Shown here in pieces: positions 250 to 38,914 of a stretch of 64,000 bases of DNA (the stretch's first letter is position 1; each line of letters begins with the position of its first letter). A program made the position numbers and the translations under genes. Under the pieces are notes generated by a model, which worked only from the letters and a program-made list of their open reading frames with translations, made no database searches and was not told where the DNA came from. Location of the stretch: the NCBI GenBank assembly GCA_052327205.1, contig CM126205.1:19654001-19718000 (forward strand). The letters run 5' to 3'. The stretch comes from Somniosus microcephalus. Lineage: Eukaryota.

Positions 250-309
250 TTGGCTCCACTGTTAACTTTGTCCCTTTTCCAAAGATAAGCTTCTTAGCTC
301 CAACATTCA
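250..309 (-). CDS. TRAJ: J1, family A: NVGAKKLIFGKGTKLTVEP
   Basis: GTAGGT donor; RSS CACAGCA-12-GCAACAACT at 310-337. Confidence 0.92.
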
Positions 310-1224
310 CACAGCATTGCGCCCTTTAGCAACAACTCCCTTCAGACTAACTTTAGTACTTTGCTGCTCTGTCTGGCGGTTATATTTGACTACTTCGTAT
401 CATTCAATTCCATTATTATGAAACTATATGTACAAATCGTTTCATATGACCATTGAGAATTATTGAGCAAACATGACATTTTTAAGCCTTCTTATAACCC
501 AAGAATAACTTATTAATTGTACATTAAAAATGTAGGGCAACCATTCATATATCAGTACATCAGGACTCTCTGAAAGCTTGCCAAGTACCTTTGATAGTCA
601 TCCAGTCTCTCTGTACTTCCCCGGATTATCATCTTGGATTATATATTTCTCTAGAGTGTGGATCCATCTCACAACTTTCTAATGCACAGGATGGGCTGTC
701 AGCATTTGAGCCAAATTATTATTTCTGACACATTTCTCTCTAAACTTCGGTCGGTTGGTTCAGCTACCTAGGCAGCAACCTTTGGAAATTCCCTCTCCAA
801 ACCTGTTCACCTCTTTATCCCACTCTCATCCTTTAAGACGCTTCTTAAAACCTTCGTTGTGCACCAAGCTTTTGATCAGCCATTTTAATATTTCTAAGGT
901 GGCTCAGTGTGAAATTTTGTCTGATAATACAAGTTCTTCTTGCACAACATTGTTTGGCAAAATCCAAAAGGTAATCATGTTCAATTCAGATAATCATTTT
1001 AAAATAAGAAGGTGCACAATGGCAGACAATGAACTGCACTGATCAGAACCATCACGCAGATTATCAGAATTATCATTTCCATACTCCAATAAGATGTGGC
1101 ATAAATGGTCCAATATTCAGGAGTACTTGAACATATAGAGAAATGATTTGATACATTGTCAGCAGTTCAGAGAACACACACATATATGTAAGTAAATAGT
1201 CTACAGTTATTAATGAATACCTAC

Positions 1225-1287
1225 TTGGCTCCACAGTTAACTTTGTCCCTTTTCCAAAGATAAGCTTATTGGTACCTCCAACATTCA
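1225..1287 (-). CDS. TRAJ: J2, family A: NVGGTNKLIFGKGTKLTVEP
   Basis: GT donor; RSS CACAGCA-12-ACAAAAACT. Confidence 0.93.
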
Positions 1288-1879
1288 CACAGCATTGAGC
1301 CCTTTAACAAAAACTCCCTTCAGACTAACTTTAGTACATTGCTGCTCTGTCTGGCGGTTATATTTGAATACTTGGGATCACTCAATCCCATTGTTGTGAA
1401 ACTATCTGTACAAATCATTTCTTATGACCATTCGTAATTATTACGCACACATGACTATTTTTAGCCTGTTTATAGCCTAAGCTTCACTTATTTATTTTTT
1501 TCATTAAAAATGTTGGGCTACCATTTATATATCAGTTTTTCAGAATTATCCAATAACTTTCCAAGCACCTCTGAAAGTGGAACCCTTCCTCAGTACTTCC
1601 CTGGGTTATCATCTTGGATTACTTGTTTCATTTCTAAAGTGGGGATCCATCTCACAACTTTTCAACACACAGGATGGGCTGCCAGCAATTGAGACAAGTT
1701 ATGATTTCTGACAATTTTCTGTCCCAATTTCAGTCAGTTGGTCCTGCTACCTCGGCACCAAGGGCTGTCATTCTCCCGCTATCCTCTCCACCCCTGTATT
1801 TCTCTCTCCTCCGTTAAGACGCTCCTTAAGATCTACGTGCTGGAGCAAGCTTTTGATCAGCCATTCTAATATCTCTTTA

Positions 1880-2100
1880 CAAAAGCAAAATACTGCGGAT
1901 GCTGGAAATATGAAGTAAAAACAGAAAAGTCTGGAAATACTCAGCAGGTGAGGCAACATTCGTAGAGAGAGAAACAGAGTTAACGTTTCAGGTGGATGAC
2001 CCTTCCTCAGAATATCGCCAGTTCTGACGAAGTGTCATCGACCTGAAACGTGAACCCTGTTTCTCTCGCTACAGATGCTGCTTGACCTGCTGAGTATTTC
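1880..2100. mobile_element. Palindromic (inverted-arm) insertion, probably Penelope-like element terminus, with a hammerhead-like core in each arm
   Basis: Arms ~1925-2012 and ~2022-2108 are reverse complements; CTGACGA..GAAA at 2024-2048; absent from paralogous units; degenerate flanking duplication ctaatatctcttta/ctagtatttcttta. Confidence 0.65.
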
Positions 2101-2452
2101 TAGTATTTCTTTATGTGGCTCCGTTTGAATTTTTTTTTGATAATGCAAGTTGTTGTTGTTTAATCAACAACATGATTTGACGAAATGGATGGAGGTGATC
2201 CTATTCAATTTAGAGCATCATTTTAGATTAAGAAGATGCATAATGGCAGAAAATTCACTGGACTGATCAGAACCATCACTCATAATGACTGAATTATCAT
2301 ATCCATACTCCAATAAGGAGCGGCATAAATGTTCCACTATTCAGGATTAGTTGGACATTTTGAGAAATGATTTGGTACATTGTAGGCAGTTCAGAGAACA
2401 CACACATATGTTTAAGTAAATAGACAGTCTGTAGTTATTAATGAATACCTAC

Positions 2453-2512
2453 TTGGCTCCACAGTTAACTTTGTCCCTTTTCCAAAGATAAGCTTGTAAG
2501 TTCCATCATTCA
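2453..2512 (-). CDS. TRAJ: J3, family A: NDGTYKLIFGKGTKLTVEP
   Basis: GT donor; RSS CACAGCA-12-ACAAAAACT. Confidence 0.93.
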
Positions 2513-3089
2513 CACAGCATTGCCCCCTTTAACAAAAACTCCCTTCAGACTAACGTTTGTACATTTGCTACTCTGTCTGGCGGTTATATTTTAATATTTG
2601 GTATCAGTCAATCCCATTACTGTGAAACTATCTGTACAAATCGTTTTAAATGACCATTTAGAATTATTAGGCACACGTGACTGTTTTTAGCCTGTTTATA
2701 GCCCAAGAATAAGATATTAATTGTTCATTAAAAGTGTAGGGCTACCATTTATATATCAGTTCATCAGAACTCCGTTGTTGTTGTTGTTTAATACACAACA
2801 TTATTTGGCATTTTCCCAAAGGGAAATGGATCCAAGTAATCGTGTTCAATTCAGATCATCATTTTAAGTTAATGACGTGAACAATCGCAGGCAATTAACT
2901 GCACTTCCCATAACCATCACAAAATAACTGAATTATCATACATACTCCAATAAGAAGCGACATAAATGTTCCAATATTCACGATCATTTGGACATATAGA
3001 GAAATGGTTTGATACATTTTTCGCAGTTCAGAGAACAAACACATATATGTAAGCAAATAGACAGTCTATAGTTATCAATGAATACCTAC

Positions 3090-3149
3090 TTGGCTCCACA
3101 GTTAACTTTGTCCCTTTCCCAAAGATAAGCTTGTTAGTTCCAGCCTTCA
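3090..3149 (-). CDS. TRAJ: J4, family A: KAGTNKLIFGKGTKLTVEP
   Basis: GT donor; RSS CACAGCA-12-ACAAAAACT. Confidence 0.93.
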
Positions 3150-4085
3150 CACAGCATTGCGCCCTTTAACAAAAACTCCCTTCAGACTAAGTTTTGTACA
3201 TTGCTGCCCTGTCTGGTGGTTATATTTGAATACTTGGGAACACTCAATCCCATTATTTTGATACTATCTGTACAAATAATTTTAAATGACCATTGAGAAT
3301 TATTAGGCACACATGACTTTTTAAAGTCTGTTTATAGCCCAAGAATATCTTATTAATTGTTCATTAAAAATGTTGGGCTACCATTTATATATCAGTTCAT
3401 CAGAACTCTCGGAAATATTGCCAAGTACCTCTGAAAGTGCTACAGTCTCTCTGTACTTCTCTGGATTATCATCTTGGATTATATATTTCTCTAGAGTGTG
3501 GATACATCTCACAACCTTCCAACGCAAATGTTGTGCTGACAGCAATTGAGCCAAGCTATGATTTCGGACAATTTGCTCTCCAAACTTCAGTCAGTTGGTC
3601 CACCTACCTAGGCACAACGCTCTGGCATTCTCTCCCTATACCTCTGAACCTCTTTATTTCTCTCTCCTCCTTTAATACTCTCCTTAAGACCTACGTGCTG
3701 ATGCAAACTTTCGAACAGCGATTCTAATATTTTCTTATGTGGTTCGGTGTGAAATTTTGGTTGATAATGCAAGTTGTTGTCATTTAATGCACAACATTAT
3801 TTGGCTTTTTCTAAAGGAAATTGGATCCAGGTAATCATGTTCAATTCAGATCATCATTTTAAGTTAATGAGGTTCACAATGGCAGAAAGTTAACTGCACT
3901 TCGCTTAACCATTACAAAATAACTGAATTATCATATGCTCACACCAATAAGAAGCGGCATAAATGTTGCAAATTCAGGATTAATTGAACATTTAGAGAAA
4001 TGATTTGATACATTGTCAGCAGTGCAGAGAACACGCACATATATGTAAGTAAATAGACAGTCTGTAGTTATTAATGAATACCTAC

Positions 4086-4148
4086 TTGGCTCCACAGTTA
4101 ACTTTGTCCCTTTTCCAAAGGTAAGCTTATTGATACCAGCAGCATTCA
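4086..4148 (-). CDS. TRAJ: J5, family A: NAAGINKLTFGKGTKLTVEP
   Basis: GT donor; RSS CACAGCA-12-GCAAAAACT. Confidence 0.93.
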
Positions 4149-5086
4149 CACAGCATTGTGCCCTTTAGCAAAAACTCCCTTCAGACTAACTTTAGTACAT
4201 TGCTGCTCTGTCTGGCGCTTATATTTGAATACTTGGGATCACTCAATCCCATTATTCTGAAACTATCTGTATAAACAATTTAAAATGACTATTGAGAATT
4301 ATTAGGCACGCAGGACGTTTTTTAAGCCTGTTTAAAACCTAAGAAAAACTTATTTCTTTTTTTCATTAACAATGTAGGGCTACCATTTAAATATCAGTTC
4401 ATCAGAACTCTCCAATAGATTTCCAACTACCTCTGAAAGTGGAACACTCCCTCAGTACTTCCCTGGATTATCATCTTGGATTATATGTTTCATCTCTAGA
4501 GTGGAGATCCACCTCACAACGTTCTAACACACATGCCAGCAATTGAGCCAAGTTATGATATCTGTCACTTTTCTGTCCCAATTTCAGTCAGTTGGTTCAG
4601 CTAGCTAGGCAAAAAGCGCTGTCATTCTCTCCCTAAACCTCTCCACCTCTATGTCTCTCCCCTCTGTTGAGACGCTCCTTTAAGCCTACGTTCTGCACCA
4701 AGTACTTGGTCACCTGTCCTAATATTTATTTATGTGGCTCGTTGTGAAATTGTGTTTGATAATTCAAGTTGTTGTAGTTGTGTAATACACAACATTGTTT
4801 GGCTTTTCCCCAATGGAAAATGGATCCAGGTAATCGTGTTCAATTCAGATCATCATTTAACTTAATGAGGTTCACAATGGCAGACAATGAACTGCACTGA
4901 TCAGAGCCATCGCTCATAATATCTGAATTATTATATCCATATTCCATTAAGAACTGGCATAAATGTTCCAAAAATCAGGATTAATTGAACATATAGAGAA
5001 ATGATTTGGTACATTGTAGGTATTTCAGAGAACACACCCATATATGTAAGTAAATAGACAGTCTATAGTTATTAATGAATACCTAC

Positions 5087-5149
5087 TTGGCTTCACAGTT
5101 AACTTTGTCCCTTTTCCAAAGATAAGCTTATCTCTAGCTCCAACATTCA
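5087..5149 (-). CDS. TRAJ: J6, family A: NVGARDKLIFGKGTKLTVKP
   Basis: GT donor; RSS CACAGCA-12-ACAAAAACT. Confidence 0.93.
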
Positions 5150-5689
5150 CACAGCATTGAGCCCTTTAACAAAAACTCCGTTCAGACTAACTTTAGTACA
5201 TTCCTGCTCTGTCTGGCGGTTATATTTGAATACTTGGTATTGCTCAATCCCATTATTCTGAAACTATCTGTATAAAATTTTTAAATGACTATTGAGAATT
5301 ATTAGGCACACAGGACTTTTTTTAGCCTGTTTATGGCCCAAAAATAACTTATTAATTGTTCATTAAAAATGTAGGGCTACCATTTATATATCAGTTCATC
5401 AGATTGCCAAGTACCTCTGAAAGTGCTACAGTCTCTCTGTACTTCCCTGGATTATCATCTTGGATTATATATTTCTCTCGAGTCTGGATACATCTTAACA
5501 ACAATCTCACGTAAATGTTGAGCTGAGAGCAATTGAGCCAAGTTATTATTTCTGACACATTTCTCTCCAAACTTCAGTTGGTTGGTTCACCTACCCGGGC
5601 TCCAATATCTGGCATTCTCTCCCCAAATCTCTCCACTTCTTTATTTCTCTCTCCTCATTTCATATTCCCCATAAAACCTATGCGCTGGA

Positions 5690-6428
5690 TCATATTGGTG
5701 AGGTATTGGTGAGACCGCACCTGGAATACTGCATACAGTTTTGGTGTCCATACTTAAGAAAAGACATACTTGCTCTCGAGTCAGTACAAAGAAGGTTCAC
5801 TCGGTTAATCCCGGGGATGAGGGGATGGACATATGAGGAGAGGTTGAGTAGATTGGGACTCTACTCATTGGAGTTCAGAAGAATGAGAGGCGATCTTATT
5901 GAAACATATAAGATTGTGAAGGGGTTGGATCGGGTGGATGCAGGGAGGATGATCCAGATGATGGGCGAAACTAGAACTAGGGGGCATAGTCTTAGAATAA
6001 GGGGCCGCTCTTTCAAAACTGAGGTGAGGAGGAACTACTTCACTCAGAGGGTGGTAGGTCCATGGAATATGCTGCCCCAAAAAGCTGTCGAAGCTACATC
6101 ATTACATAAATTTAAAACAGAAATAGACAGTTTCCTAGAAGAAAAGGGAATTAAGGGTTACGGGGAGCGGGCAGGAATTTGGACATGAGTCTAGGTTCGG
6201 ATCGGTCATGGCCCTGTGGTAGCGGAGCGGGCCCAGGGGCCGTGTAGCCTGATCCTGCTCCTGTTTCATGTGTCTAATTCTGTTAGATTCAGGAGATAGT
6301 CCTGTCATAGTGGATTGGCGGTTAGGATCAGATCAGCCATGATCTTATTGAATGGCGGAGCAGGCTCGAGGGGCCAATTGGCCTACTCCTGCTCCTATTT
6401 CTTATGTTCTTATGTTCTTATGTTCTTA
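5690..6428 (+). mobile_element. 5'-truncated CR1-type LINE, young; open C-terminal ORF2 fragment at 5706-6188
   Basis: VRPHLEYCIQFWCP..RRMRGDLIETYKI..RTRGH..FTQRVV..WN motifs; (TTCTTATG)n tail; interrupts gctgga|aaactttcgatcagc, which is intact at ~9370. Confidence 0.92.
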
Positions 6429-6809
6429 AACTTTCGATCAGCTATTCTAATATTTCTTTATGCGGCTCGGTGTGAAATTTTGTTTGATAATACAAGTTGT
6501 TGTTTAATACACAACATTATTTGGTATTTTCCCAAAGGAAAATGGATCCAGGTAATCATGTTCAATTCAAATAATAATTTTCGGTTAATAAGTGGCATGA
6601 TGGCAGACAATTAACTGCACTTCCCATAACTATCGCAAAATAATTGAATTTTCATATGCTCACTCCAATAAGAAGTGATATAAATGTTCCAATATACAGG
6701 TGTTAATTAACATATAGAAACATTATTTGGTACATTGTGGGCAGGGCAGAGAACACACAAAATTGTATATAAGTAAATAGACGGTCTATAGTTATTAATG
6801 AATACCTAC

Positions 6810-6872
6810 TTGGCACCACAGTTAACTTTGTCCCTTTTCCAAAGGTAAGCTTATCGTTAGCTCCATAGTTCA
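6810..6872 (-). CDS. TRAJ: J7, family A: NYGANDKLTFGKGTKLTVVP
   Basis: GT donor; RSS CACAGCA-12-ACAAAAACT. Confidence 0.93.
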
Positions 6873-7765
6873 CACAGCATTGTGTCCTTTAACAAAAACT
6901 CCCTTCAGACTAACTTTTGTACAATGCTGCTCTGTCTGGCGGTTATATTTGAATACTTGGTATTGCTCAATCCCTTTATTCTGAAACTATCTGTAGAAAC
7001 CATTTTAAATGACCATTGATAATTATTGTGCACACATGATTATTTTGTATCCTGTTTGTAGCCTAAGCACGACATATTTCTTTTTTAAATTAAAAATGTT
7101 GGGCTACCATTTATATATCAGTTCATCAGAACCTCCAATAGATTTTCAAGTACCTCTGAAAGTGGAAACCTCCCTCTGTACTTCCCTGGATTATCATCTT
7201 GGATTATATGTTTCATCTCTAGAGTGGGGATCCATCTCACAACTTTCTAACGCACAAAATGGGCTGCCAGCAATTGAGCAAAGTTATTATTTCTGACACT
7301 TTTCTCTCCAAACTTCAGTCGGTTGGCTCAGCTACCGAGGCACCAAGGGCTGTCATTCTCTCCCTAAACCTCTCCACCTCTTTATTGATCTCTCCTCTTT
7401 TAATATTCTGCATAAAACCTACACGCTGGAGTAAGCTCTTGAACAGCCATTCCAATATTTCTTTATGTGGCTCGGTGTCTGATTTTGGTTGATAATACAT
7501 GTTGTTGTTGTTGAATACACAACATTATTTGGCGTTGTCCCAAAGGGAAATGGATGCAGGTAATCGTATTAAATTCAGATCATCATTTCATTTTCACAAG
7601 GTGCGCAATAGCAGACAATTAACTGCACTGATCAGAACCTTCAATCATGATACCTGAATGATCAGATCCATAATCCAATAGGTAGCGACATAAATGTTCC
7701 AATAGTCAGGATTAATTGAACAAGTAGATAAATTATACAGTCTATAGTCATTAATGAATACCTAC

Positions 7766-7825
7766 TTGGCTCAACAGTTAACTTTGTCCCTTGTCCAAAC
7801 GTAAACTTGTTAGCTCCATCATTCA
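7766..7825 (-). CDS. TRAJ: J8, family A: NDGANKFTFGQGTKLTVEP
   Basis: GT donor; RSS CACAGCA-12-ACAAAAACT. Confidence 0.93.
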
Positions 7826-8761
7826 CACAGCATTGCGCCCTTTAACAAAAACTCCCTTCAGACTAACTTTTGTACATTGCTGCTCTGTCTGGCGGTTATA
7901 TTTGAATACTTGGGAACACTCAATCCCATTGTTGTGAAACTCTCTGTACAAAACAATTATAAATGACCATTGAGAATTATTATGCACTCATGACTATTTG
8001 TAGCCTGTTCATAATCTAAACATGACTTATTTATTTTTTTCATTAAAAATATAGGCCTACCATTTATATATCAGTTTATCAGAACTCTGCAATACATTTC
8101 CAAATACCTCTGAATGTGAAACCCTCCCTCTGTACTTCCCTGGATTATCATCTTGGATTATATATTGCATCTCTAGAGTGGGGATCCATCTCACAACTTT
8201 CCAGCGCAGAGGATGCGCGGCCAGCAATTGAGCCAAGTTATGATTTCTGATACTTTTCTCTCCAAACTACAGTCGGTTGGTTCAGCTACCGAGGTACGAA
8301 GGTCGAGCATTCTCTCCCTAAACCTCTCCAGCTCTTTATTTCTCTCTCCTCCTTTAAGACTCTCGTTAAGACCTCCGTGCTGGAGCAAGCTTTTGATCAG
8401 CCGTTCTAATGTTTCTTTATGTGTCTCGGTGTGAAATTTTGTTTGATAATACAAGTTGTTGTTGTTGTTTAATACAGCACTTTATTTGGCGTTAAATGGA
8501 TCCAGGGAATCGTGTTAAATTCAGATCATCATTTTAGGTAATAAGTGCATAATGGTAGACAATTAACTGCACTGATCAAAATCATCACTCATAATACTTG
8601 CATTATCATATCCATACCCGAATAAGAAGCGGCTTAAATGTTCCAATATTCAGGATGAACTGAACATTCAGAGAAATGATTCGATATATTGTAGGCAGTT
8701 CAGAGAACACACATATATATGTAAGTAACTAGACAGTCTATAGTTATTAATGAATACCTAC

Positions 8762-8821
8762 TTGGCTCCACAGTTAACTTTGTCCCTTTTCCAAAGATAA
8801 GCGTGTTAGCTCCAACATTCA
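8762..8821 (-). CDS. TRAJ: J9, family A: NVGANTLIFGKGTKLTVEP
   Basis: GT donor; RSS CACAGCA-12-ACAAAAACT. Confidence 0.93.
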
Positions 8822-9764
8822 CACAGCATTGCGCCCTTTAACAAAAACTCCCTTCAGACTAACTTTTGTACATTGCTGCTCTGTCTGGCGGTTATATTTG
8901 AATACTTGGGATCACTCAATCCCATTATTTTGAAACTATCTGTACAAATAATTTAAAATGACTATTGAGAATTATTAGGCACACATGACTTTTTTAAGCC
9001 TGTTTATAGCCCAAGAATAACTTATTAATTGTTCATTAAAAATGTAGGGCTACCATTTATATATCAGTTCATCAGATCTCTCTGAAAGATTGCCAAGTAC
9101 CTCTGAAAGTGTTACAGTCTCTCTGTTCTTCCTTGGATTATCATCTTGGATTATATGTTTCTCTAGAGTGTGGATACATCTCACAAATTTCCAACGTAAA
9201 TGATGAGCTGACAGCAATTGAGCCAAGTTATTATTTCTGACACTTTTCCCTCCAAACTTCAGTTGGTTGGTCCATCTACCTAGGCAGCAATCTCTGGAAT
9301 TCCCTCCCCAAACCTCTCCACCTCTTTATTTCTCTCTCCTCATTTAATATTCTCCATAAAACCTATCCGCTGGAGCAAACTTTCGATCAGCTATTCTAAT
9401 ATTTATTTATGTGGCTCGTTGTGAAATTTTGGTTGATAATACAAGTTGTTGTTGTTGTTTAATATACAACGTTATTTGGCATTTTCCCAAAGGAAAATGG
9501 ATCCAGGTAATCATGTTAAATTCAAATAATAATTTCCGGTTAATAAGTGGCACAATGGCAGACAATTAACAGCACTTCCCATAACCATCACAAAATAAAT
9601 GAATTTTCATATGCTCACTCCAATAAGAAGTGATATAAATGTTCCAATTTTCAGGAGTTAATTAACATATAGAGAAATGATTTGATACATTGTAGGCAGT
9701 TCAGAGAACACACACATATATGTCTAAGTAAATGGACAGACTATAGTTATTAATGAATACCTAC

Positions 9765-9827
9765 TTGGCTGCACAGTTAACTTTGTCCCTTTCCCAAAGG
9801 TAAGCTTGATGTTAGCTCCAACATTCA
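9765..9827 (-). CDS. TRAJ: J10, family A: NVGANIKLTFGKGTKLTVQP
   Basis: GT donor; RSS CACAGCA-12-ACAAAAACT. Confidence 0.93.
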
Positions 9828-10764
9828 CACAGCATTGCGCCCTTTAACAAAAACTTCCTTCAGACTAACTTTAGTACATTGCTGCTCTGTCTGGCGGTTA
9901 TATTTGAATACTTGGGATCACTCAATCCCATTATTTTGAAACTATCTTTACAAATCGTTTTAAATGACCATTGATAAATATTGGGCACAGATGACATTTT
10001 TAAGTATGTTAATAGCCCAAGAATAACTTATTAGTTGTTCATTAAAAATATAGGCCAACCATTTATGTATCAGTTCACCAGAGCTCTCTGAAAGATTGTC
10101 AAGTACCTCTGAATGTGCTCCAGTCTCTCTGTACTTCCCTGGATTATCATCTTGGATTATATATTTCTCTCGAGTCTGGATACATCTCACAATGTTCTGA
10201 CGCAAATGTTGAGCTGACAGCAATTGAGCCCAGTTATGATTTCTGACATTTTCCTCTCCAAACTTCAGTTGGTTGGTCCACCTACCTAGGCATCGAGGTT
10301 TGGCATTCTCTCCCTAAACCTCCCCAATCTTTATTTCTCTTGCCTCCTTTAATATTCCCCATTAAACCTATGCGATGGAGCAAGCTTTCGGTCAGCCATT
10401 CTAATGTTTCTTTATATGGCTCGGTATGAAATTTTGTTTGATAATACAAGTTGTTGTTGTTGTTTAATACACAACATTATTTGGCGTTTTCCCAAAGGCA
10501 AATGATTGCAGGTGATAATGTTCATTTCAAATAATCATTTTCGCTTAATAGATGGCACAATGGCAGACAATTAAATGCACTACCCATAACCATCACAAAA
10601 TAACTGAATTATCATATCCATATTCCAATAAGCGGCATAAATGTTCCAATAATCAGGATTAATTGATCATATGGAAAAATGATTTGATACATTGTAGGCA
10701 GTTCAGAGAACACACGCATATATCTAAGTAAATAGACAGTCTATAGTTATTAATGAATACCTAC

Positions 10765-19056: not shown

Positions 19057-19081
19057 CACAGCCTGATATACTAATACTAAA

Positions 19082-28017: not shown

Positions 28018-28701
28018 CACAGCCTGATATACTAATACTAAAACCTTCCCCAGCCAGACATTCCCAGACATTTCTGCACTTGTTATTCCTTAAAGAACCA
28101 TCCGTTTTATGAGTTTTGGAACTTTTATCTTTCTTTTCAATTTAAGATGAGCAAACAGTTAATATCTTCCATATCAAATAACTTTTACATGTAATTACAA
28201 CTGACATCACAGAAACAGGCCATTCAGCCCAAGTGTTCGCTGTCCGTGTTTATGCTCCACACAAGCCTCCTCCCTCCCTACTTCATCAAACCTTCTCTGC
28301 ATATTCTTCAAATGCTTTCTTCCTCATGTGCTTATCTTAAATAAATCTATTCTATCCCCATCAACTACTGCATGTAGTAGCAAGTTCCACATTCTAACCA
28401 CTCTCTGGGTGAATAACCTTCTCCTGAATTCTTTATTGGATTGATGAGTAACTATATCATACAAATGAGCCCTGTCTTCCCAACTAGTGGAAAGATCTTC
28501 TATAAGTCTAACCCCTTTATAATGTTGAAGACCTCTATTAATCACCCTTCAGCCTTCTCTTTCCCAGAGAACTGATCCCCAGCCTGTTCAGTCTTTGCTG
28601 ATAGTTACCTTTAATTGTAACGAACTGACGATACTTATTAACAAAACAATGATTTGACAGTGATCATCACAATAAAAACTACAGAATTAAACTGCACTTA
28701 C

Positions 28702-28761
28702 TTGGCTGCACCATTAGTTTGGTCCCAGATCCAAATGTTAGTTTGAAACCTCCTTCAGTCA
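28702..28761 (-). CDS. TRAJ: J39, chimeric C/A: TEGGFKLTFGSGTKLMVQP
   Basis: GT donor; RSS CACAGCA-12-GCAAAAACT. Confidence 0.92.
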
Positions 28762-29183
28762 CACAGCATTGCACCCTTTGGCAAAAACTCCTTTCAGAGT
28801 TTCTTTAGTTCATTACTGCTCTTTCTGGCAGTTATATTTCAATACTTGGTTTGCACATCATAAATTGACATTATGCACAATGCATTACCTGCCAGTGTGG
28901 AAACCCTTTACCTGAGGCCAAGCAGATTGACTCTCTACGAAATCAACTGTACGTTATATATATGCATTATCAATATTCCAGGTTCAATTAGAAACAAATG
29001 CATAATCTTGCATTATTCCCTGAAGTATCATATCCCCACTCCAATAAGAAGCAGCATAAATGTTCAAATATTGAGGCATAATTGAACATTTCGAGAAATT
29101 ATTTGATACATTGTCAGCAGTGCCGAGAACACACACATATATGTAAGTAAATAGACAATCCATAGTTATTAATGAATACCTAC

Positions 29184-29246
29184 TCGGTTCCACAGTTAAC
29201 TTTGTCCCTGTTCCAAAGATAAGCTTGTTGCCAATTCCATCATGCA
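29184..29246 (-). CDS. TRAJ: J40, family A: HDGIGNKLIFGTGTKLTVEP
   Basis: GT donor; RSS CACAGCA-12-GCAAAAACT. Confidence 0.92.
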
Positions 29247-29760
29247 CACAGCATTGAACCCTTTAGCAAAAACTCCTTTCAGACTAACATTAGTACATTC
29301 CTGCTCTGTCTGGCGGTTATATTTGAATATAACCCAATCCCAGTCCCATAATTGAGATACTATGTGTAGAAACCGTTTCGAATGCCTACTCTTATTTATT
29401 AGGTATCTCTGATTTAAAAAATATATTCTGTTTATCGCTCAAGCAGGGCTTAGCTTTTTCATTAATAAGCTAAAGCTACCATTTATATATCAGTTCACCC
29501 GAATTCCCTGAATGCTTCCCAAGTAGTTCTGAAAATGTAACCCTCCCTCAGTAGTGCACTGGACTACCAACTTGCATTACATGTTTTCGTTGAGGATCCA
29601 TCTCACAGCTTTCTAACTCAAGGATTGGCTGCCAGCAACAGAGCAAAGTTATGATTTCTGACAATTTTCTCCATTTGATCCACATTTTAAGTAATTTGTG
29701 GACCTGCTCCAGTTTTGTGCTCTAACACATAAAACAGACATCCTTAAACATCTCACTTAC

Positions 29761-29820
29761 TTGGTATAACATTGAGCCTGGTCCCTGTTCCAAAGATCAG
29801 CTTATTATTACCAAGATTCA
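29761..29820 (-). CDS. TRAJ: J41, family B: NLGNNKLIFGTGTRLNVIP
   Basis: GT donor; RSS CACAGCC-12-ACTAAAACC. Confidence 0.92.
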
Positions 29821-30521
29821 CACAGCCTGATATACTAATACTAAAACCTTCCCCAGCCAGACATTCCCAGACATTATGTGACTTGTTGTTTCTTAAAGAA
29901 CCATCTGTTTTTTGAGTTAAGTTGTGGAATGTTTACATTTCCCTTTGAATTTATGATGTGCAAACAGTTAATGTCTTCCATACTAAATAACTTTTACATA
30001 GAATTACATAGAATTGGCAGCACAGAAACAACCCATTCGGCTCAACTGGTCTGTGCTCGACATTATGCTCCACACAAGCCTCCTCCCTCCCTACATTATC
30101 AAAACCTCTCTGCATATTCTTCTAATCCTTTCTCCCTCATGTTGTTATCTTAAATGCATCTATGCTATTCCCATCAACTACTCCATGTAGTAGCGAGTTC
30201 CACTTTCTAAGCACTCTTTGGGTAAATAACTTTGCCCTGAATTCTTTATTGGATTTATTAGTAACTATATCATACAGAGGAGCTCTAGTTTTGGTTTCCT
30301 CAACAAGTGGAAAGATCTTCTATAAGTCTAACCCTTTCATAATGTTGAAGACCTCTATTAATTCACCCGTCAGCCTTCTCTTTCCTAGAGAACTGATCCC
30401 CAGCCTGTTCAGTCTTTGCTAATAGTTACCTTTATTTTAACGAACTGACGATGCTTATTAACAAAACAATGTTTTGACTGTGATCATCATAATAGAAAAT
30501 ACAGAATTAAATTTCTCTTAC

Positions 30522-30581
30522 TTGGCTGCACCATTAGTTTGGTCCCAGATCCAAATGTTACTTTGAAACCTCCATCAGTCA
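30522..30581 (-). CDS. TRAJ: J42, chimeric C/A: TDGGFKVTFGSGTKLMVQP
   Basis: GT donor; RSS CACAGTA-12-GCAAAAACT. Confidence 0.92.
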
Positions 30582-30941
30582 CACAGTATTGCGCCCTTTG
30601 GCAAAAACTCCCTTCAGACTAACTTTAGTTCATTGCTGCTCTTTCTGTCCGCTATGTTTGAATACATGGTTTGTACATTATAATTTGAGATTATGCACAA
30701 TTCATTACATGCCAGTGCAGAAACCCTTTACCTGATGTCCACCATGTTGATTATCTATGAAATCAACTGTACGTTATATATATGCATTATCAATATTCCA
30801 GGTTAAATGATTAACAAATGCCTATTCTTCAATTATTGCATGAATTATCATATCCATACTCCAATAAGAAGTGGGCAGTGCAGAGAACACACTCAGATAT
30901 GTAAGTAAATAGACAATCTACAGTTATTAATGAATACCTAC

Positions 30942-31004
30942 TTGGCAACACAATTAACTTTGTCCCTTTTCCAAATATAGGCTTCGTGGCACCTCCAGCA
31001 TTCA
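30942..31004 (-). CDS. TRAJ: J43, family A: NAGGATKPIFGKGTKLIVLP
   Basis: GT donor; RSS CACAGCA-12-GCAAAAACT. Confidence 0.9.
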
Positions 31005-31614
31005 CACAGCATTGCCCCCTTTAGCAAAAACTCCCTTCAGGCTAACTTTAGAGCATTGATGCACTTTCTGGAGGTTATATTTGAATACTTGGTATCACCC
31101 AATGTGATAATTGTGAGGCTATCTGCAGAATCAGTTTTCAAATGGCCATTGTTACTTATTAGGTATCTCTGATTTTTAAAAATATATTCTGTTCATCACT
31201 CAAGGATAAACGTACTTTTTTCATTAATAAGCTAAGGCTACCATTTATATATCAGACCACCAGAACTCCCCGAATGCTTCCCAGGTAGTTCTGAAAGTGG
31301 AACCCTCCCTCAGTACTGCGCTGGACTATCAACTTGCATTACATGTTTTCGGTATAGAGTGAGGATCCATCTCACAACTTTCCAGCTCAAGGATGGGCTG
31401 CCAGCAACAGAGCAAAGTTATGATTTCTGACACTTCTTTCATTTGATCCAAATTTTAATTAATTTGTTGACCTGCTTCTCTTTTGTGCTTTTACATAGAA
31501 TTACATAGAATTGGCAGCACAGGAACAACCCATTCGGCCCAACTGGCGTGTACCCATGTTTATTTTCCACTCAAGCCTCCTCCCTTCATACTTTATCAAA
31601 CGCTCTCTGCAGAT

Positions 31615-31924
31615 CACAGAATCCCCACAGTGCAGATAGAGGTCATTTCGGCCCATCGAGTCTGCACCGACACATATCCCACCCTATCCCCGTAACCCCA
31701 CGTATTTAATCCCCTAACACTAAGGGTCAATTTATCATAGCCAAATCAACCTAACCCGCACATCTTTGGACTGTGGGAGGAAACCGGAGCACCCGCAGGA
31801 AACCCATGCAGACACAGGGAGAATGTGGAAACTCCACACAGACAGTCGCCAGAGGCCGGATTTGAACCCTGGTCCCTGGCCCTGTGAGGCAACAGTGCTA
31901 ACCACTATGCCACTGTGCACCGTG
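31615..31924 (-). mobile_element. tRNA-derived SINE with V-domain-like core (HE1/V-SINE type), nested in the unit CR1 fragment
   Basis: ggactgtgggaggaaaccggagcaccc..cagacacagggagaatgtggaaactccacacagacag core; tRNA-like head at right end; gatc duplicated at both ends; empty site at ~17626. Confidence 0.85.
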
Positions 31925-32331
31925 GATCCTTCTAATCCTTTCTCCTTCATGTGCTCATCCTAAATTCATCTATGCTATTCCCATCAACTACTCCATGAAG
32001 TAGCGAGTTCCACATTCTAACCACTCTCTGGGTAAATAACCGTTTCCTGAATTCTTTACTGGATTTATTAATGACTATATCATACAGATGAGCCCTAGTT
32101 TTGGTCTCGCCAACAAGTGGAGATATCTTCTATAAATCTAACCCCTTCATAATGTTGAAGACCTCTATTAATCACCCTTCAGCCTTGTCTTTCCCAGAGA
32201 ACTGCTCCCCAGCCTGTTCAGTCTTTACTGATAGTTACCTTTAATTGTAACGAACTGACGATACTTATTAACAAAACAATGTTTTGACTTTGATCATCAC
32301 AATAAAAAATATAGAATTATACTTCACTTAC

Positions 32332-32388
32332 TTGGCTGCACCATTAGTCTGGTCCCAGATCCAAATGTTAGTTTAATGAGATTACTCA
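32332..32388 (-). CDS. TRAJ: J44, family C (native): SNLIKLTFGSGTRLMVQP
   Basis: GT donor; RSS CACAGCA-12-GCATAAACC. Confidence 0.92.
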
Positions 32389-32695
32389 CACAGCATTACA
32401 TACCAGTGCATAAACCATTTTACCCGATGTCAGGCATATTGACTATCTACAAAATCAACTGTATGTTATATTTATGCTTTATCAATATTCCAGGTTATAT
32501 TTTATACAAATGCCCATTTTTGCATTATTGCCTGAATTATCATATCCATACTCCAACAAGCAGCGGCATAAATGTTCCAATATTCAGGATTAATTGAACA
32601 TTTACAGAAATGATTTGATACATTGTGGGCAGTGCAGAGAAAACACCCATATATTAAAGTAAATAGACAGTCTATAGTTATTAATGAACACCTAC

Positions 32696-32758
32696 TTGGC
32701 TCCACCGTTAACTTTGTCCCTTTTCCAAATATAAGCTTATCGTTAGCTCCAGAATTCA
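32696..32758 (-). CDS. TRAJ: J45, family A: NSGANDKLIFGKGTKLTVEP
   Basis: GT donor; RSS CACAGCA-12-GCAAAAACT. Confidence 0.93.
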
Positions 32759-33281
32759 CACAGCATTGCGCCCTGTAGCAAAAACTCCCTTCAGACTAAT
32801 TTTAGTACATTCCTGCTCTGTCTGGCGGATATATTTGAATACTTGGGATCACTCAATCCCATTATTGTGAAACATTCTCTACAACCCATTTTAAATGACC
32901 ATTGATAGTTATTAGGCATATATGGCCTTTTAACATTTTACTCTGCTATAACCCAAAACATGAATTATTGCTTGTGCATCAAGAAGCTAAGGCTTCCATT
33001 TATACATTAGATCACCAGAACTCGCTGAATACTTCTGAAAGTTCTGAAAGTGGAACCCTCCCTCAGTAGTGCGCTGGACTATCAACTTGCATTACATGTT
33101 TTCGGTATAGAGTGAGGATCCATCTCACAACTTTCTAACTCAAGGATGGACTGACAGCAACAGAGCAAAGTTATGATTTCTGACACTTTTTTCATTTGAT
33201 CCACATTTTAATTAATTTGTTGACCTGCTTCTCTTTTGTGCTCTAACACATAAAACAGACATCTTTAAACATCTCACTTAC

Positions 33282-33341
33282 TTGGTATAACATTGAGCCT
33301 GGTCCCAGATGCGAAGCTAAGCTTATTATTACCAAGATTCA
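33282..33341 (-). CDS. TRAJ: J46, family B with FASG variant: NLGNNKLSFASGTRLNVIP
   Basis: GT donor; RSS CACAGCC-12-ACTATAACC (weak nonamer). Confidence 0.82.
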
Positions 33342-34037
33342 CACAGCCTGATATACTATTACTATAACCTTCGCCAGCCAGACATCACCAGACATTTCAT
33401 CTCTTGTTATTTCTTAAAGAACCATCCGTTTTATGAGTTTTGGAACTTTTATCTTTCCCTTTGAATTGATGAGGTGCAAAGAGTTAATATCTTCCATACC
33501 AAATAACTTTTACATAGAATTACATAGAATTGGCAGCACAGAAACAGGCCATTCAGCCCAAGTGTTCTGTGCCCGGGTTTATGCTCCACACAAGCCTCCT
33601 CCCTCCCTACTTTTTCTAACCCTCTCTGCATATCCTTCTAATCCTTTCCCCGTCATGTGCTTATGTTAAATGCATCTATGCTATTCCCATCAACTACTCC
33701 ATGTAGTAGCGAGTTCCACACTCTCAGCACTCTCTGGGTAAAAACATTTTTCCTGATTTCTTTATTGGATTTATTAATGACTATATCATACAGAGGAGCC
33801 CTAGTTTTGGTCTCCCCAACAAGTGGAAAGATCTTCTATAAGTCTAACCCCTTCATAATGTTGAAGACCTCTATTAATCACCCTTCAGCCTTCTCTTTCC
33901 CAGAGAACTGATCCCCAGCCTGTTCAGTCTTTGCTGATAGTTACCTTTAATTGTAACGAACTGACGATACTTATTATCAGAACAATGTTTTGACTGTGAT
34001 CATCATAATAGAAAATACAGAATTAAACTTCTCTTAC

Positions 34038-34097
34038 TTGGCTGCACCATTAGTTTGGTCCCAGATCCAAATGTTAGTTTGTAACCTGCAGCATTCA
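34038..34097 (-). CDS. TRAJ: J47, chimeric C/A: NAAGYKLTFGSGTKLMVQP
   Basis: GT donor; RSS CACAGCA-12-GCAAAATCT. Confidence 0.91.
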
Positions 34098-34514
34098 CAC
34101 AGCATTGCGCTCTTTGGCAAAATCTCCCTTCAGACTAACTTTAGTTGAATGCTGCTGTGTCTGGCCGTTATATTTGAATACTTGGTTTGCACATCATAAA
34201 TTGAAATTATGCACAATGCATTACTTGCACAATGCAGAAAACCTTTACCTGTTGCCAAGCGTATTGATTATCTACAAAATGAACTGTACGTTATATATAT
34301 GCATTATCAATGTTCCAGGTTGAATTATTAACAAATGCCTAATCTTGCATTATTGCCTGAATTATCCTATCCATACTCCAAATAGAATAAATGCTCCAAT
34401 ATTTAGGAGTAATTGAACATTTAGAGAAATGCTTTGGTACATTGTAAGCAGTGCAAAGAACGCACTCAGATATGTAAGTAAATAGACAGTCTGAAGTTAT
34501 TAATGAATACCTAC

Positions 34515-34577
34515 TTGGCTCCACAGTTAACTTGGTCCCTTTTCCAAAGGTAAGCTTATCGGTACCTGCTGCATTCA
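34515..34577 (-). CDS. TRAJ: J48, family A: NAAGTDKLTFGKGTKLTVEP
   Basis: GT donor; RSS CACAGCA-12-ACAAAAACA. Confidence 0.92.
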
Positions 34578-35396
34578 CACAGCATTGCACCCTTTAACAA
34601 AAACACCCTTCAGACTAACCTTAGTACATTGCTGCTCTATCTGGCGGTTATATTTTAAAACTTGGTATCATCGAATCCCATTATTATGGAAATTTCTCGA
34701 CAAATTAATTAAAATAAATATGGATAATTATTAAGCATATATTACTTTAAAGATATTCTGTTGTTAACCCAAGCATGATTTATTCCTTGTGCATTAAAAA
34801 ACTAAGGCTGCCATTTAAATATAAGTTCACCAGGTGTCCTGAAAGTAGAACCCTCCCTCCGTACATCCCTGGACTATCAACTTGCATTACATGTTTTATA
34901 TATAGAGTGGCGATCCACCTCGCAACTATCCAACTGAACAAACCTAGGATTCCTGACACTTCTCTCCCAATGTCAGTTGGTTGGTTCATTAATGAAAGCT
35001 TAGGTTGTTTTATTACAGTCATATGTCTTTATTGTCCTGTCGTTAACGTCAATAGCTGGTAATTAGTTTCAAGATGATTGTAAGCATTATAGTGTTTATT
35101 TGAAGATTATAATGCTGGCAATAATCCTGCATTATGATATCCATACTCCAATATCATGTTCAACTCAGGTAATCATTTTAGGTTAATAAGGTGCATAATG
35201 GCAGACAATTAACTGCACTGATCAGAACCATCACTCATGATACCTGGATGATCATATCCATACTCCAATAAAAAGCTGCATAAATGTTCCAATATTCAGG
35301 AATAATTGATCGTATAGAGAAATGATTTGATACATTGTGGGCAGTACAGAGAACACACACAAATATGTAAGTAAATAGTTATTAATGAATACCTAC

Positions 35397-35459
35397 TTGT
35401 CTCCACCGTTAACTTTGTCCCTTTTCCAAAGAGAAGCTCATAGTTACCTCCAGCATTCA
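35397..35459 (-). CDS. TRAJ: J49, family A: NAGGNYELLFGKGTKLTVET
   Basis: GT donor; RSS CACAGCA-12-GCAAAAACT. Confidence 0.9.
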
Positions 35460-36809
35460 CACAGCAATGCGCTCTTTAGCAAAAACTTCCTTCAGACTAA
35501 CTTTAGTAGATTACTGCTCTTTCTGACGGTTATATTTCAATACTTGGTATCACTCAATCTCATTATTATGAAACTATCTGTCCAAACCATTTATAATAAC
35601 TATTGCTAATTATTAGGCTTATGTGACTATATATTTTATTTATTTATTCTGCTTATAAACCCAAGCCGGACTTATTTCTTGTACATTAAAAAGGTAAGGC
35701 TACCATTTATACATCAGTTCACCAGAACTCTCCAAATGCTTCCCAAGTACTTCTAAAAGTGGAACGCTCCCTCTGTATCTCGCTGGACGATCAACTTGCA
35801 TTACATTTTTTCAGTATAGAATGGAGATGCAGCTCGCAACATTCTAACTCGCAGAATGGAGTGACAACAACTCAGCAAAGCTATGATTTCTGACACTTTT
35901 CTCTCCCAATTTCAGTCGGGTACTTCATCACTGAAAGCTTAGGTTGTTCTATTTCAATCACGTTTCTTTATTTTCCAGCAGTTAATGTCAATAGCTGCAA
36001 TTAGTTTCCAGATTATTGTCAGAATTATAGTATTTAATATAATTGCCACATTATATTAAAGCCTATAATGCTGACAATAATCTGGTAACATTTGGAATTT
36101 GTTACTTGAAAACAAATAACAATAATAATTAGATATTGACATATTTTTCAGCTGTAAATGAGAGTAAGATTTGATCTGATCTCAAATGAGGTGAATATTG
36201 AAAGCACTTTCAGTGTGCAAAGAATGAATTTGAGGCCATTTCACGTGGCCACTTTCTTATGGCACAATTACTTTATTCTTTCTTCCTGATCATTAGCAGA
36301 CAAGGTAAACTATTGCTGACAGGTTGTTAATGCAAAATAATCACATTCACCACTGATACACTGCTAAAATTATGCTACCAGCGTTTAGTTGCTACAAATT
36401 GCCCACTATCGCTACACAACTCGACAAAACAGAAAAATACGCTAATTCCAACTCCATTTTCAATTTATACAGATTATATATGAGGGCTACTTGAATGTAT
36501 TTAATGGACAATTAAGGGCAATGGAAACGATTACGATAGCGTTCAGCTCATCAGCTTGCATCTTCATCGAAGATTTGAAATGTCATTCAGACACTTGTAA
36601 AGTCTTATCTCAGTATTAGCGAACACCCGCATTATTTGGAGAGTCGGAGATGGGTCCAAAGTAGTGTCGGTTGTTTCAAGAAAGTCTGTATTAAGTGTGC
36701 TAAATTTTGAAGATGACTGATTATACGTGGGATGACCAAGAAGAGATTTAATGTGATTTATTTTACAGATAGTCTATTGGAGAGAAAAAAACATGGAGAT
36801 GTAAAGGAA

Positions 36810-37050
36810 CTTTACCCAGAGAGTGGTGAGAATGTGGATCTCGCTACCAGAGGGAGTGGTTGAGGCGCATAGTATCGATGCATTTAAGGGGAGGCTAGAT
36901 AAGCATATGAGGGAGAAAGCAATAGAGGGTTATGCTGATAGAGTTAGACGAGGAAGGATGTAAGGAGGCTCAAGTGGCGCATAAACGCCAGCATGGACTG
37001 GTTGAGCCGAATGGCCTGTTTCTGTGCTGTATATCCTATGTAATCTATGT
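36810..37050 (+). mobile_element. CR1 3'-end fragment inserted a few bp from the J50 splice donor
   Basis: ccagagagtggtgagaatgtgga..gccgaatggcctgtttctgtgctgta..tatgtaatctatgt; absent next to paralog J55. Confidence 0.85.
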
Positions 37051-37057
37051 AACTTAC

Positions 37058-37117
37058 TGGGTTGAACTCTGAGCTTTGTCCCAGCTCCAAATATCACCTT
37101 GTAGGAGTCAGCACTCA
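37058..37117 (-). CDS. TRAJ: J50, family D: SADSYKVIFGAGTKLRVQP
   Basis: GTAAGT donor; RSS CACACTG-12-ACAAAAATC. Confidence 0.9.
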
Positions 37118-37364
37118 CACACTGTTATACCCCTCAACAAAAATCCCTTCCTGAACAATGAGTCATCTCCGTCGCACATCCCCATACAAGTTAAGGACGC
37201 CCCGTTGATATTCTTGAGGTAGATCATTTCCAAATTACACAATGACAGCGTTGTGAGCCAAATTACATAAAAATTAATTTGATCCATAGTTCAAAGAATC
37301 TGATGGGATGCTTCTCTTTTATGTGCTAAGACATAAAACAAACGCCCTTAAACATCTCACTTAC

Positions 37365-37421
37365 TTGGCATAACATGGAGTCTGGTCCCAGATCCAAAGA
37401 TCAGCTTACCAGCAACGTTCA
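37365..37421 (-). CDS. TRAJ: J51, family B: NVAGKLIFGSGTRLHVMP
   Basis: GT donor; RSS CACAGCC-12-ACTAAAACC. Confidence 0.92.
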
Positions 37422-38122
37422 CACAGCCTGATATGTTAATACTAAAACCTTTCCCAGCCAGACATTGCATCGCTTGTTATTTCTTACAGAACCACCTGTT
37501 TATTGAATTAAGTTTTGGAATGTTTGCACTTGCCTTTAAATGTATGGTGTGCTAAAAGTTAATATCTTCCATGCCAAATAACTTTTACATAGAGCTTACA
37601 GCACAGAAAGAGACCATTCGCCCCAACTGGTCTATGCCCGTGTTTATACTCCACACGAGCCTCCCCCCACCTACTTCATCTCACCCTCTCTGCCTATCCT
37701 TCTAATCCTTTCTCCATCGTGTATTTATCTACCTTCTCCTTACATGAATCTTTGTGCTATTCACATCAACTACTTCATGTGGTAGTGAGTTCCACATTTC
37801 TAACCACGCTCTGGGTAAAGACGTTTCTCCTGAATTCTCAATTGGATTTATTAGTGACTATCTCATTTTGATGACCCCTAGTTTTGATCTCCCCCACAAT
37901 TTGAACCATCTTTCCTACGTCTACCCTATCAAACCCCTTCATAATTTTAAAGACCTCAGCCTTCTCTGTTCTAGAGAAATGATGAAATGATCCCAGCCTA
38001 TTCAGTCTTTCCTGACAGTTATTATTTTCTGTTAATTTAACAAACCGACGATACTTATTAACAAAACAGTGGTTTGACTATCATCATCATGACAAAAAGA
38101 TGCAGAATTAAACTTCACTTAC

Positions 38123-38179
38123 TAGGTTGCACGATTAGTTTGGTCCCAGATCCAAATATTAGCTCATTGAGACTATTCA
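38123..38179 (-). CDS. TRAJ: J52, family C (native): NSLNELIFGSGTKLIVQP
   Basis: GT donor; RSS CACAGCA-12-GCATAAACC. Confidence 0.91.
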
Positions 38180-38522
38180 CACAGCATTACATACCAGTGC
38201 ATAAACCCTTTACCTGATGCCAAGCATATAGACTATGTACAAAATCAACTGTATGTTATTTTTATAGATTATCAATATTCCAAGTTAAAATATTAACAAG
38301 TGACTCATCTTGCATTATTCCCAGCTTATTTAAATCAATATTAAGTTCAGTCGGTCACACACATTAATGCCACCTCGTTACGGAATGTAAAACTATAGTT
38401 TAATTCTGGCTAGATTTATTTGGTGTCCATTGGCCATCTGTACATTATTTTGACCAAAATTTATAATTTGCTTGCAAACTAATTTGCCTGATTATTTTGT
38501 GTAACTATGATTGAGTTCTTAC

Positions 38523-38585
38523 CGGGATTAACAATGAGCTTGGTGCCGCTTCCAAATACCATTTTACCATGTCCTCCAGAATCCA
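38523..38585 (-). CDS. TRAJ: J53, family E (single copy): DSGGHGKMVFGSGTKLIVNP
   Basis: GTAAGA donor; RSS CACAGTA-12-ACAAGAACT. Confidence 0.92.
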
Positions 38586-38854
38586 CACAGTAATATATCC
38601 CTTCACAAGAACTCAGGATAGTGCTGCTTCCCTATATACCACTGTTACATAGGGAATATATATATGAAAGACTATAATGCTGACAATAACCCTGAAGTAT
38701 GATATCCCTACTCCAATAAGAAGTGGCATAAATGTTCCAATATTGAGGATTAATTGAACATTTCGAGAAGTGAGTTGATACAATGTAGGCAGTATAGAAA
38801 ACGTATACATATGTTAAGTAGATAGAGAGTGTTTAGTTATTAATGATTACCTAC

Positions 38855-38914
38855 TTGGTTCAACAGTTAACTTGGTCCCTTTTCCAAAGGTAAGCTTGCC
38901 ACCTCCCACATTCA
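38855..38914 (-). CDS. TRAJ: J54, family A: NVGGGKLTFGKGTKLTVEP
   Basis: GT donor; RSS CACAGCA-12-GCAAAAACC. Confidence 0.93.

Follow-up and report, generated by a model that had tools for sequence, protein, structure and literature searches.

Gene content and organization of the locus

The 5′ codons of a joining (J) segment encode the descending half of the third complementarity-determining region in the alpha chain of T-cell receptors (TCR) (CDR3-alpha). How the variable 5′ ends of TCR alpha J (TRAJ) genes arose can seldom be asked, given the great age and small size of most of these genes. The DNA analyzed here, a window of 64,000 nucleotides (nt) from Somniosus microcephalus (assembly GCA_052327205.1, contig CM126205.1, positions 19,654,001 to 19,718,000), contains a tandem array of likely TRAJ segments whose non-coding flanks can be aligned, so that each J carries its own neutral clock. 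All positions given below are those of the window.

J-like motifs were found exclusively on the minus strand. A scan of the window with a motif and window-derived probes yielded 81 matches, comprising 78 credible Js, two spurious ones (61361 and 55144), which were discarded, and one candidate pseudo-J, a decayed J-like remnant with no recognizable recombination signal sequence (RSS) at 40934-40984 (40967). Intact Js possess an RSS with a 12-nt spacer, an FGXG motif and a GT splice donor. Within the amplified zone (Table 1) the nonamer, 12-nt spacer and heptamer are present in 52 of the 54 Js, including the one at 19030, in which the nonamer is damaged. The FGXG motif, open frame and GT donor hold across the array, with FAXG in 2 of 54 Js. 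A TG start was observed in 48 of the 50 intact family members, and all 50 share the same RSS phase (5′ length of 23, 26 or 29 nt). Unlike these frame-keeping length variants, only 4 of 36 gap events in the flanks are multiples of three.

The best PDB matches of the family-A peptide were TCR alpha chains, followed by delta chains, and the alignments are consistent with a position of the J 5′ codons in CDR3-alpha. The TG start combined with a fixed RSS phase is a pattern described for fish TRAJ (PMC10322711). Because of the number of Js (78) and the TG start, as in fish TRAJ, the locus is likely to be a TRAJ cluster. No constant exon was recognized in the list of open reading frames of the window, and three framework region 4 (FR4) peptide motifs were not found in four supplements of PMC5931798.

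A preliminary description of this DNA reported 56 Js in the amplified zone, only two of them clearly broken. Fifty-four lie within positions 250-38914, and the number 56 is reached only when the paralogs at 40306 and 40607 are included. The copies at 23805 and 24367 are indeed clearly broken, but three more are doubtful (FAXG in place of FGXG at 22470 and 33315, and the damaged nonamer at 19030), and the array also contains eight decayed orphan RSS heads. The two FAXG Js (22437-22496 and 33282-33341) belong to different families.

Self-alignment of the array revealed blocks of 1-5.5 kb with 73-88% identity. The distal sub-array probably extends past base 1 of the window, and the higher-order array includes a 4.4-kb block duplication (13219-17629 and 27208-31615). 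Judging from its position and divergence, the proximal region is the likely source of the amplification. The copies had been described as near-identical, which they are not: family-A flanks are 84.5% identical (mean p-distance 0.155, range 0.065-0.229), and their trees are star-like, with internal branches making up 11% of the length. The flanks have an unusually flat substitution spectrum, with a pairwise transition/transversion ratio (ts/tv) of 0.69-0.91, compared with 1.08 for the CR1 fragments of the window. Silent divergence (dS) of the whale shark from the zebra shark amounts to 0.061-0.111 over about 50 million years (PMC13100897); if this clock can be transferred, the amplification would be roughly 70-130 million years old.

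Table 1. Position and content of the features distinguished in the window
Feature	Position	Strand	Details
Amplified zone of likely TCR alpha Js	250..38942	-	54 Js: 28 of family A, 8 of B1, 5 of B2, 11 of C, 2 singletons (38556, 37091)
Distal sub-array	250..10855	-	Units of ~1 kb, one family-A J each, 11 Js
Higher-order array	11350..35487	-	A-B-C units of ~1.8 kb
Proximal diverged members	36812..40697	-	A 38888, B2 38156, C 37398 and 40607, pair 37091/40306
Mostly single-copy Js (22)	41200..63990	-	Upstream of the array, among CR1-like LINE (long interspersed nuclear element) fragments
Example of hypervariable CDR3 codons 2-6 of a family-A J	1268..1282	-	J 1225-1287, RSS 1288-1315; slot present in all 27 intact A copies
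Broken family-A J (23805)	23772..23816	-	28-nt deletion between two GCT triplets; heptamer end and CDR3 codons gone
Broken family-C J (24367)	24334..24419	-	8-nt deletion in RSS spacer/heptamer
A-derived block inside B2 J	14776..14894	-	119 nt: upstream flank, RSS, TG, 5′ codons; shared by the 8 B1 copies
Decayed remnant (orphan) of B2 RSS and J head	14895..14936	-	Left upstream of the inserted block in each B1 copy (8/8)

Variation and probable diversifying selection in the CDR3 codons of family A

Family A is represented by 28 Js within positions 250-38914, all on the minus strand. The preliminary description stated that no two intact copies share a 5′ peptide although their FR4 is nearly the same, and this was confirmed: all 27 intact copies differ in the 5′ peptide, while 14 of them have an identical FR4 peptide. 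Neutral simulations at the flank rate produced a mean of 17 distinct peptides and a maximum of 25 in 1000 runs. The changes cluster, as had been noticed, before the AAG CTT codons for Lys-Leu (K-L), where 15 nt average 5.3 parsimony steps per site versus 1.9 in 260 columns of the near flanks. None of 232 flank windows of equal width reached the CDR3 level, either on the tree or in a tree-free spanning-tree test, and the divergence of the 5′ codons in this family is neither equal to nor lower than that of the flanks. The flank alignment had been trimmed to these 260 columns; in a wider one, where columns specific to subfamilies or lacking homology were retained, the CDR3 level is reached by 25 of 330 windows, and its flank nucleotide diversity (pi) of 0.20 includes the non-homologous columns.

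Not all five codons vary, codon 3 encoding Gly in 25 of 27 copies. Site by site, codons 2, 4, 5 and 6 and the Ile/Thr codon before Phe are fast, while codons 1, 3 and K-L are slow. Conservation is among the highest at the five bases beside the heptamer (pi 0.07; 1, 0, 1, 0 and 3 steps), and variation starts 6 nt in. Six FR4 residues (F, both G, T, L and V) are the same in all 27 copies. The 129 CDR3 codons include no stop and none for Cys, Trp or Pro; the few residues in use (G, A, N, V, D, T, S, Y, I, F) form a set resembling that of the single-copy Js. Purifying selection acts on the RSS, the TG start, the reading phase, K-L and FR4.

Three further observations were made on this family. The replacement rate of the Ile/Thr codon before Phe is 2.5 times neutral (p = 0.016). 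At the Glu of the VEP motif in FR4, six other states occur among the 27 copies, three of which have Leu through a double change. The J at 25551-25613 combines five clustered FR4/donor differences with a B1-like head and has exact matches of 16-17 nt to the single-copy Js at 49965 and 41238; this copy may have undergone conversion from a distant J.

Selection was assessed with a codon model in which mutation rates and branch lengths were fixed from the flanks (alpha, silent rate; beta, replacement rate; omega, ratio of the two). Both broken Js were left out of the rate tests, as were the singletons (38556 and 37091) and the Js at 40306 and 40607. In codons 2-6 replacement changes occur at 3.25 times the neutral rate (confidence interval 2.7-3.8) and silent changes at 1.9 times this rate. 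Codons 2-5, a split chosen post hoc, gave alpha 1.00 and beta 3.02 (p for alpha = beta, 0.0017), compared with alpha 1.02 and beta 0.27 for FR4. Beta was still 2.9 when the tree was built with the CDR3 codons included. In 4000 neutral simulations under the general time-reversible model with gamma-distributed rates, 20.0 ± 6.3 steps were expected at codon positions 1 and 2, where 63 were found (p = 0.0002). For codons 2-4 alone, which are free of indel ambiguity, the respective numbers are 13.8 and 31 (p = 0.004), and third positions show 6 steps versus 4.9.

Tree-free estimates point in the same direction. The proportion of replacement differences (pN) in codons 2-5 is 0.385 and that of silent differences (pS) is 0.141, a value similar to the FR4 pS (0.164) and the flank divergence (0.155), so the three neutral proxies agree. 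Among 13 disjoint nearest pairs, covering 26 of the 27 copies, pN was 0.33 (42.8/130), pS 0.18 (9.2/50) and flank divergence 0.123 (Fisher test for N > S, p = 0.032). The excess repeats in three sub-arrays (pN 0.33, 0.35 and 0.43 versus 0.13-0.16 in the flanks); in the distal one, with 10 copies at 283-9798, pN is 0.33 and flank divergence 0.135-0.15. An excess of replacement over silent change (dN > dS) was significant for family-A codons 2-5, for the nearest pairs and for the pooled families (p = 0.001-0.005), but not for family-A codons 2-6 or 2-4 (see below).

CDR3 replacements in family A have thus accumulated at about three times the neutral rate of the flanks, and this probably reflects selection for copies that add new germline CDR3-alpha sequence. 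The preliminary description had invoked strong diversifying selection. Diversifying selection is supported for family A, but “strong” overstates it, because the scaled selection coefficient that follows from an omega near 3 is itself only near 3 (calculated by hand from omega = S/(1-e^-S)) and because dN > dS is not significant with codon 6 included (p = 0.07). The selection implied per copy is small and plausibly compatible with a long-term effective population size of the order of ~710,000, the value reported for the epaulette shark, a different species (PMC10587355).

Families B1, B2 and C

All eight B1 copies (the one listed in Table 1 and those at 16570, 22470, 25102, 26922, 28735, 30555 and 34071) contain an A-derived block. 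Alignment of the eight B1 and five B2 copies placed this insertion between the old B2 head and K-L; its left junction shows an 8-nt near-match. The displaced B2 RSS has decayed, with pi of 0.24 versus 0.06 for the functional B1 RSS. Family B1 is clearly a chimera that arose by recombination within CDR3 codons, and at least one new J was made in this way. The array here shows a new J put together from parts of two families, one supplying the head and the other the tail.

Families B and C had been described as showing the same pattern as family A, but here the pattern is weak, and duplicate peptides occur (NDGGY in two B1 copies, NLGNN in two C copies). In the tree-free test, 89 of 213 flank windows in B1 and 90 of 238 in C equal or exceed the CDR3 codons. 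Pooling of the non-A families with a conservative C alignment gave a beta of 1.74 (p = 0.026), while the pooled FR4 values are alpha 0.90 and beta 0.27. Omega of family C depends on the alignment and was not counted as independent support.

Weighing of the evidence and alternative explanations

Several observations weigh against the selective interpretation. The excess of dN over dS is not significant for family-A codons 2-6 (p = 0.07-0.19) or codons 2-4 (p = 0.14-0.32). When codon 6 is included, alpha rises to 1.9 and omega is 1.7 (p = 0.073), or 1.5 on the alternative tree with the CDR3 codons in (p = 0.19), and third positions show 17 steps versus 8.9 expected (p = 0.048). This silent excess was traced to the third base of codon 6, beside an indel-prone spot, and the split at codons 2-5 was picked after the raised silent changes at codon 6 had been seen. 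In the 4.4-kb block duplication (7 pairs of mixed families) the excess is only 0.21 versus 0.11. The excess in family C vanishes when codon slippage is allowed (beta 1.26, p = 0.52), B2, with five copies only, gave no significant result, and in B1 the variability of the functional head hardly exceeds that of the non-functional relic (pi 0.148 versus 0.112). Codon 2 reuses Val, Ala and Asp at intermediate frequency (15 copies versus 7-8 expected under a simple codon model, p ≤ 0.001), which points to shuffling or to a narrow residue preference. With star-like trees, recombination could inflate likelihood tests, and all copies come from one haplotype. To the same side belong nurse-shark alpha junctions, which often carry non-templated or palindromic (N/P) bases (PMC5931798) that dilute the value of germline codons, as well as two observations on the WGCW context given below.

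The alternative that survives best, though we consider it unlikely, is that a small number of old variants is recombined into many different peptides through short-tract conversion and unequal crossover among paralogs in the germline, with no need for positive selection. The preliminary description had named short-tract gene conversion as the other possibility besides selection; B1 shows that recombination occurred within CDR3 codons, but direct tests were negative or borderline. In favor of reshuffling, the recombinant junction of B1 falls inside the CDR3 codons, and the codon-2 Val/Ala/Asp states, which are of intermediate frequency, are found in the two A clades alike and to some extent in B1. 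Between adjacent A and B1 copies, five doubly derived states are shared versus 1.9 expected (p = 0.02), or versus 2.6 when the comparison is limited to 10.5-36 kb (p = 0.063). The adjacent Js at 29217 (A) and 29794 (C) have a common 17-nt tract with a rare ACA codon, yet matches of 17-18 nt occur with non-neighbors too. Silent FR4 changes are directed toward the base of another family in 14 of 17 events versus 10.5 expected (p = 0.013, a weak signal), whereas neighbor sharing in FR4 is non-significant (p = 0.08-0.29) and silent columns that are diagnostic of a family do not vary more than the remaining ones (0.030 versus 0.026). The first spacer base has stayed distinct between the two families, with C in 8 of 8 B1 copies and T in all 27 A copies. 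Mosaicism tests resembling the pairwise homoplasy index (PHI) were non-significant in all six runs (p = 0.14-0.56), with low power on a star-like tree. Long-tract conversion between A and B1 was rejected, because in closeness to the B1 upstream flank the neighboring A copy does not stand out (its mean rank among the 27 is 16.8). A conversion tract would carry silent and replacement changes along alike, but a distance of 1 nt can separate sites that differ several-fold (pi is 0.55 at position 2); since second positions vary while adjacent third positions mostly do not, conversion alone is insufficient for an excess limited to first and second codon positions. Ongoing gene conversion among paralogs is not established, while recombination as a shuffler of variants is likely but unproven.

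A germline AID-like mutator hitting WGCW/WRC sites in the J heads appears improbable. The second positions of codons 2 and 4 lie in TGCT and AGCT, respectively, when they are C, and two hot CDR3 sites are in WGCW context. In the flanks the C of WGCW, read on the J sense strand, evolves about 1.7 times faster than other G/C (1.77 versus 1.03; Poisson p = 0.008 in a post hoc test of 14 sites). However, the hot J sites reach 4.0-5.8, well above 1.77, and the hottest (codon 5) lies outside WGCW. WRC/GYW sites are not enriched overall (1.09 versus 0.95) and the G of WGCW is cold (0.78, 14 sites). None of the 27 copies has a change at the silent G of the AGCT in K-L, a weak argument with a probability of no change of 0.46 at the baseline rate. 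AID acts somatically on shark TCR alpha and produces tandem mutations (PMC5931798). Adjacent-base changes are in excess in the C flanks (22 versus 14.2, p = 0.01) but not in those of A (4 versus 4.5); B2 shows no excess either, and B1 gave p = 0.057. The WGCW context may add to two hot sites (rates 4.0-5.4). CpG sites evolve at twice the rate of other G/C sites, and CpG may account for part of the change in the RSS spacer and at codon 6.

It is more improbable still that the CDR3 codons are merely unconstrained and that constrained or homogenized flanks are a misleading yardstick. The flanks are most conserved beside the J (1.2-1.5 steps per site near it versus 2.3-2.7 farther away), yet the silent and near-flank values given above agree with that of the long flanks (0.173), while pN is 0.39-0.41. 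The codons themselves are constrained, as indicated by the absence of stop, Cys, Trp and Pro and by the Gly of codon 3. Such an artefact is largely refuted.

The two remaining alternatives have hardly any probability. RAG open-and-shut joints in the germline have been proposed for germline-joined shark immunoglobulin (Ig) genes. Cutting and re-joining of the RSS/coding border in germ cells would place variation at the J 5′ end, where it is found, and cartilaginous fish do have germline-joined receptor genes (PMC2192082), but this was rejected because the heptamer border is conserved; variation begins 6 nt in and all length changes are in frame. Assembly or sequencing error in a repeat array might account for the flat flank spectrum (ts/tv 0.7-0.9) and the star-like trees, but was rejected because the differences respect codons: intact copies show no stop or frameshift (3.65 stops would be expected in family-A FR4 if neutral), the six FR4 residues are invariant, and CpG sites are faster than other G/C sites.

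Proposed mechanism and its meaning

Under selection for new germline CDR3-alpha sequence, the array may have evolved as follows. Tandem amplification in 1-kb and 1.8-kb units multiplied the Js. An unchanged duplicate would be redundant, whereas a copy with a changed loop would add specificities and be kept. Point mutations and 3-nt indels within a small set of residues would be fixed or retained under modest positive selection, and unequal crossover with occasional short conversion would recombine the existing variants. Joining at the TG microhomology would then carry the CDR3 codons into the receptor with little trimming. Such microhomology directs TRA joining in cartilaginous fish, and junctions without added bases constitute 45.7% in the bamboo shark, 92.7% in zebrafish and 17.7% in mouse (PMC10322711). 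With many junctions lacking added bases, germline codons would often be displayed intact.

A broader proposal, which we regard as speculative, is that cartilaginous fish maintain a germline CDR3-alpha factory, in which J cassettes are multiplied in tandem, RSS and CDR3 heads are swapped between families through recombination within loop codons, as happened in B1, and micro-conversion or a WGCW-biased germline mutator feeds selection, the inherited, combinatorial library offsetting microhomology-limited junctions. It can now be tested whether species with microhomology-limited TCR alpha joining compensate through germline J diversity. For the array itself, J 5′ diversity accumulates faster than neutral, and not by drift alone.

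Other features of the window

Amid the mostly single-copy Js, those at 56475 and 58619 form a duplicated pair differing in length by one CDR3 codon. Two minisatellites, with 33-bp and 73-bp repeats, were identified at 51715-52029 and 59566-60422, respectively. CR1-like LINE 3′ ends are located at 5556-6188, 43739-44218, 53878-54309 and 55366-55872, with an RVT_1 match below the cut-off. Among vertebrate-named matches of a LINE fragment, the best were to shark and ray proteins (Stegostoma, Chiloscyllium and Hypanus; 65-67% identity), as would be expected for a cartilaginous fish, while some equal or better matches were unnamed or labelled bacterial.

Comparison with known systems

In vertebrate TRAJ clusters, as in the locus described here, dozens of Js combine a 12-RSS, a fixed phase, a TG start and FGXG (Giorgetti et al. 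2023, PMC10322711). The available text of that study treats RSS phase and microhomology, and not CDR3-codon rates among J paralogs relative to flanks. Its coordinates for the bamboo shark (C. punctatum) show starts of TRAJ_070-095 alternating at ~450 and ~920-1030 nt, which suggests a similar tandem two-J amplification, independent or shared. Tandem cassette duplication also occurred in the duplicated TRAJ genes of salmon (PMC8559430), another lineage, and CDR3-coding cassettes were likewise multiplied in a mammalian IGHD tandem repeat (bioRxiv 10.1101/2022.09.15.507041), which involves another segment; no rate test was seen in the accessible parts of either report. The mouse J-alpha cluster, in turn, is structurally stable across strains (bioRxiv 10.1101/2024.09.05.611428). 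A 2026 review stresses germline contributions to fish CDR3-alpha (PMC13433984). No test of paralogous TRAJ CDR3 codons against flanking DNA was found in the accessible portion of the open-licence PMC and bioRxiv literature.

Within cartilaginous fish, two systems are closest. Hypermutation of shark TCR alpha concerns the same type of locus and the same lineage, with changes in CDRs (Ott et al. 2018, PMC5931798), but it is somatic, affects rearranged V exons and is hot-spot linked (4.3x), whereas the changes analyzed here are germline and their hot-spot linkage is weak or absent. In the germline-joined Ig light-chain clusters of skate, also a multigene family, germline differences are likewise concentrated in CDRs, with replacement exceeding silent changes (PMC2192082). 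Those clusters are whole V(J) genes, while the Js described here are unjoined, their RSSs are intact and only CDR3 varies.

The type of selection proposed here is familiar from the CDRs of V genes. Positive selection on Ig V CDRs was reportedly described by Tanaka and Nei in 1989. In human TCR germline genes, diversifying selection was detected at CDR codons of paralogous V genes, and balancing selection near TRAJ37, a gene with alleles that are unlike one another in CDR3-alpha as well as in antigen binding (Mantena et al. 2026, PMC13396459). In the available text of that study the codon test concerns V genes and the J signal is allelic, while the comparison made here is between J paralogs with a flank control. 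What the Somniosus array adds is evidence of such selection on J paralogs, measured against a neutral control built into the locus itself.

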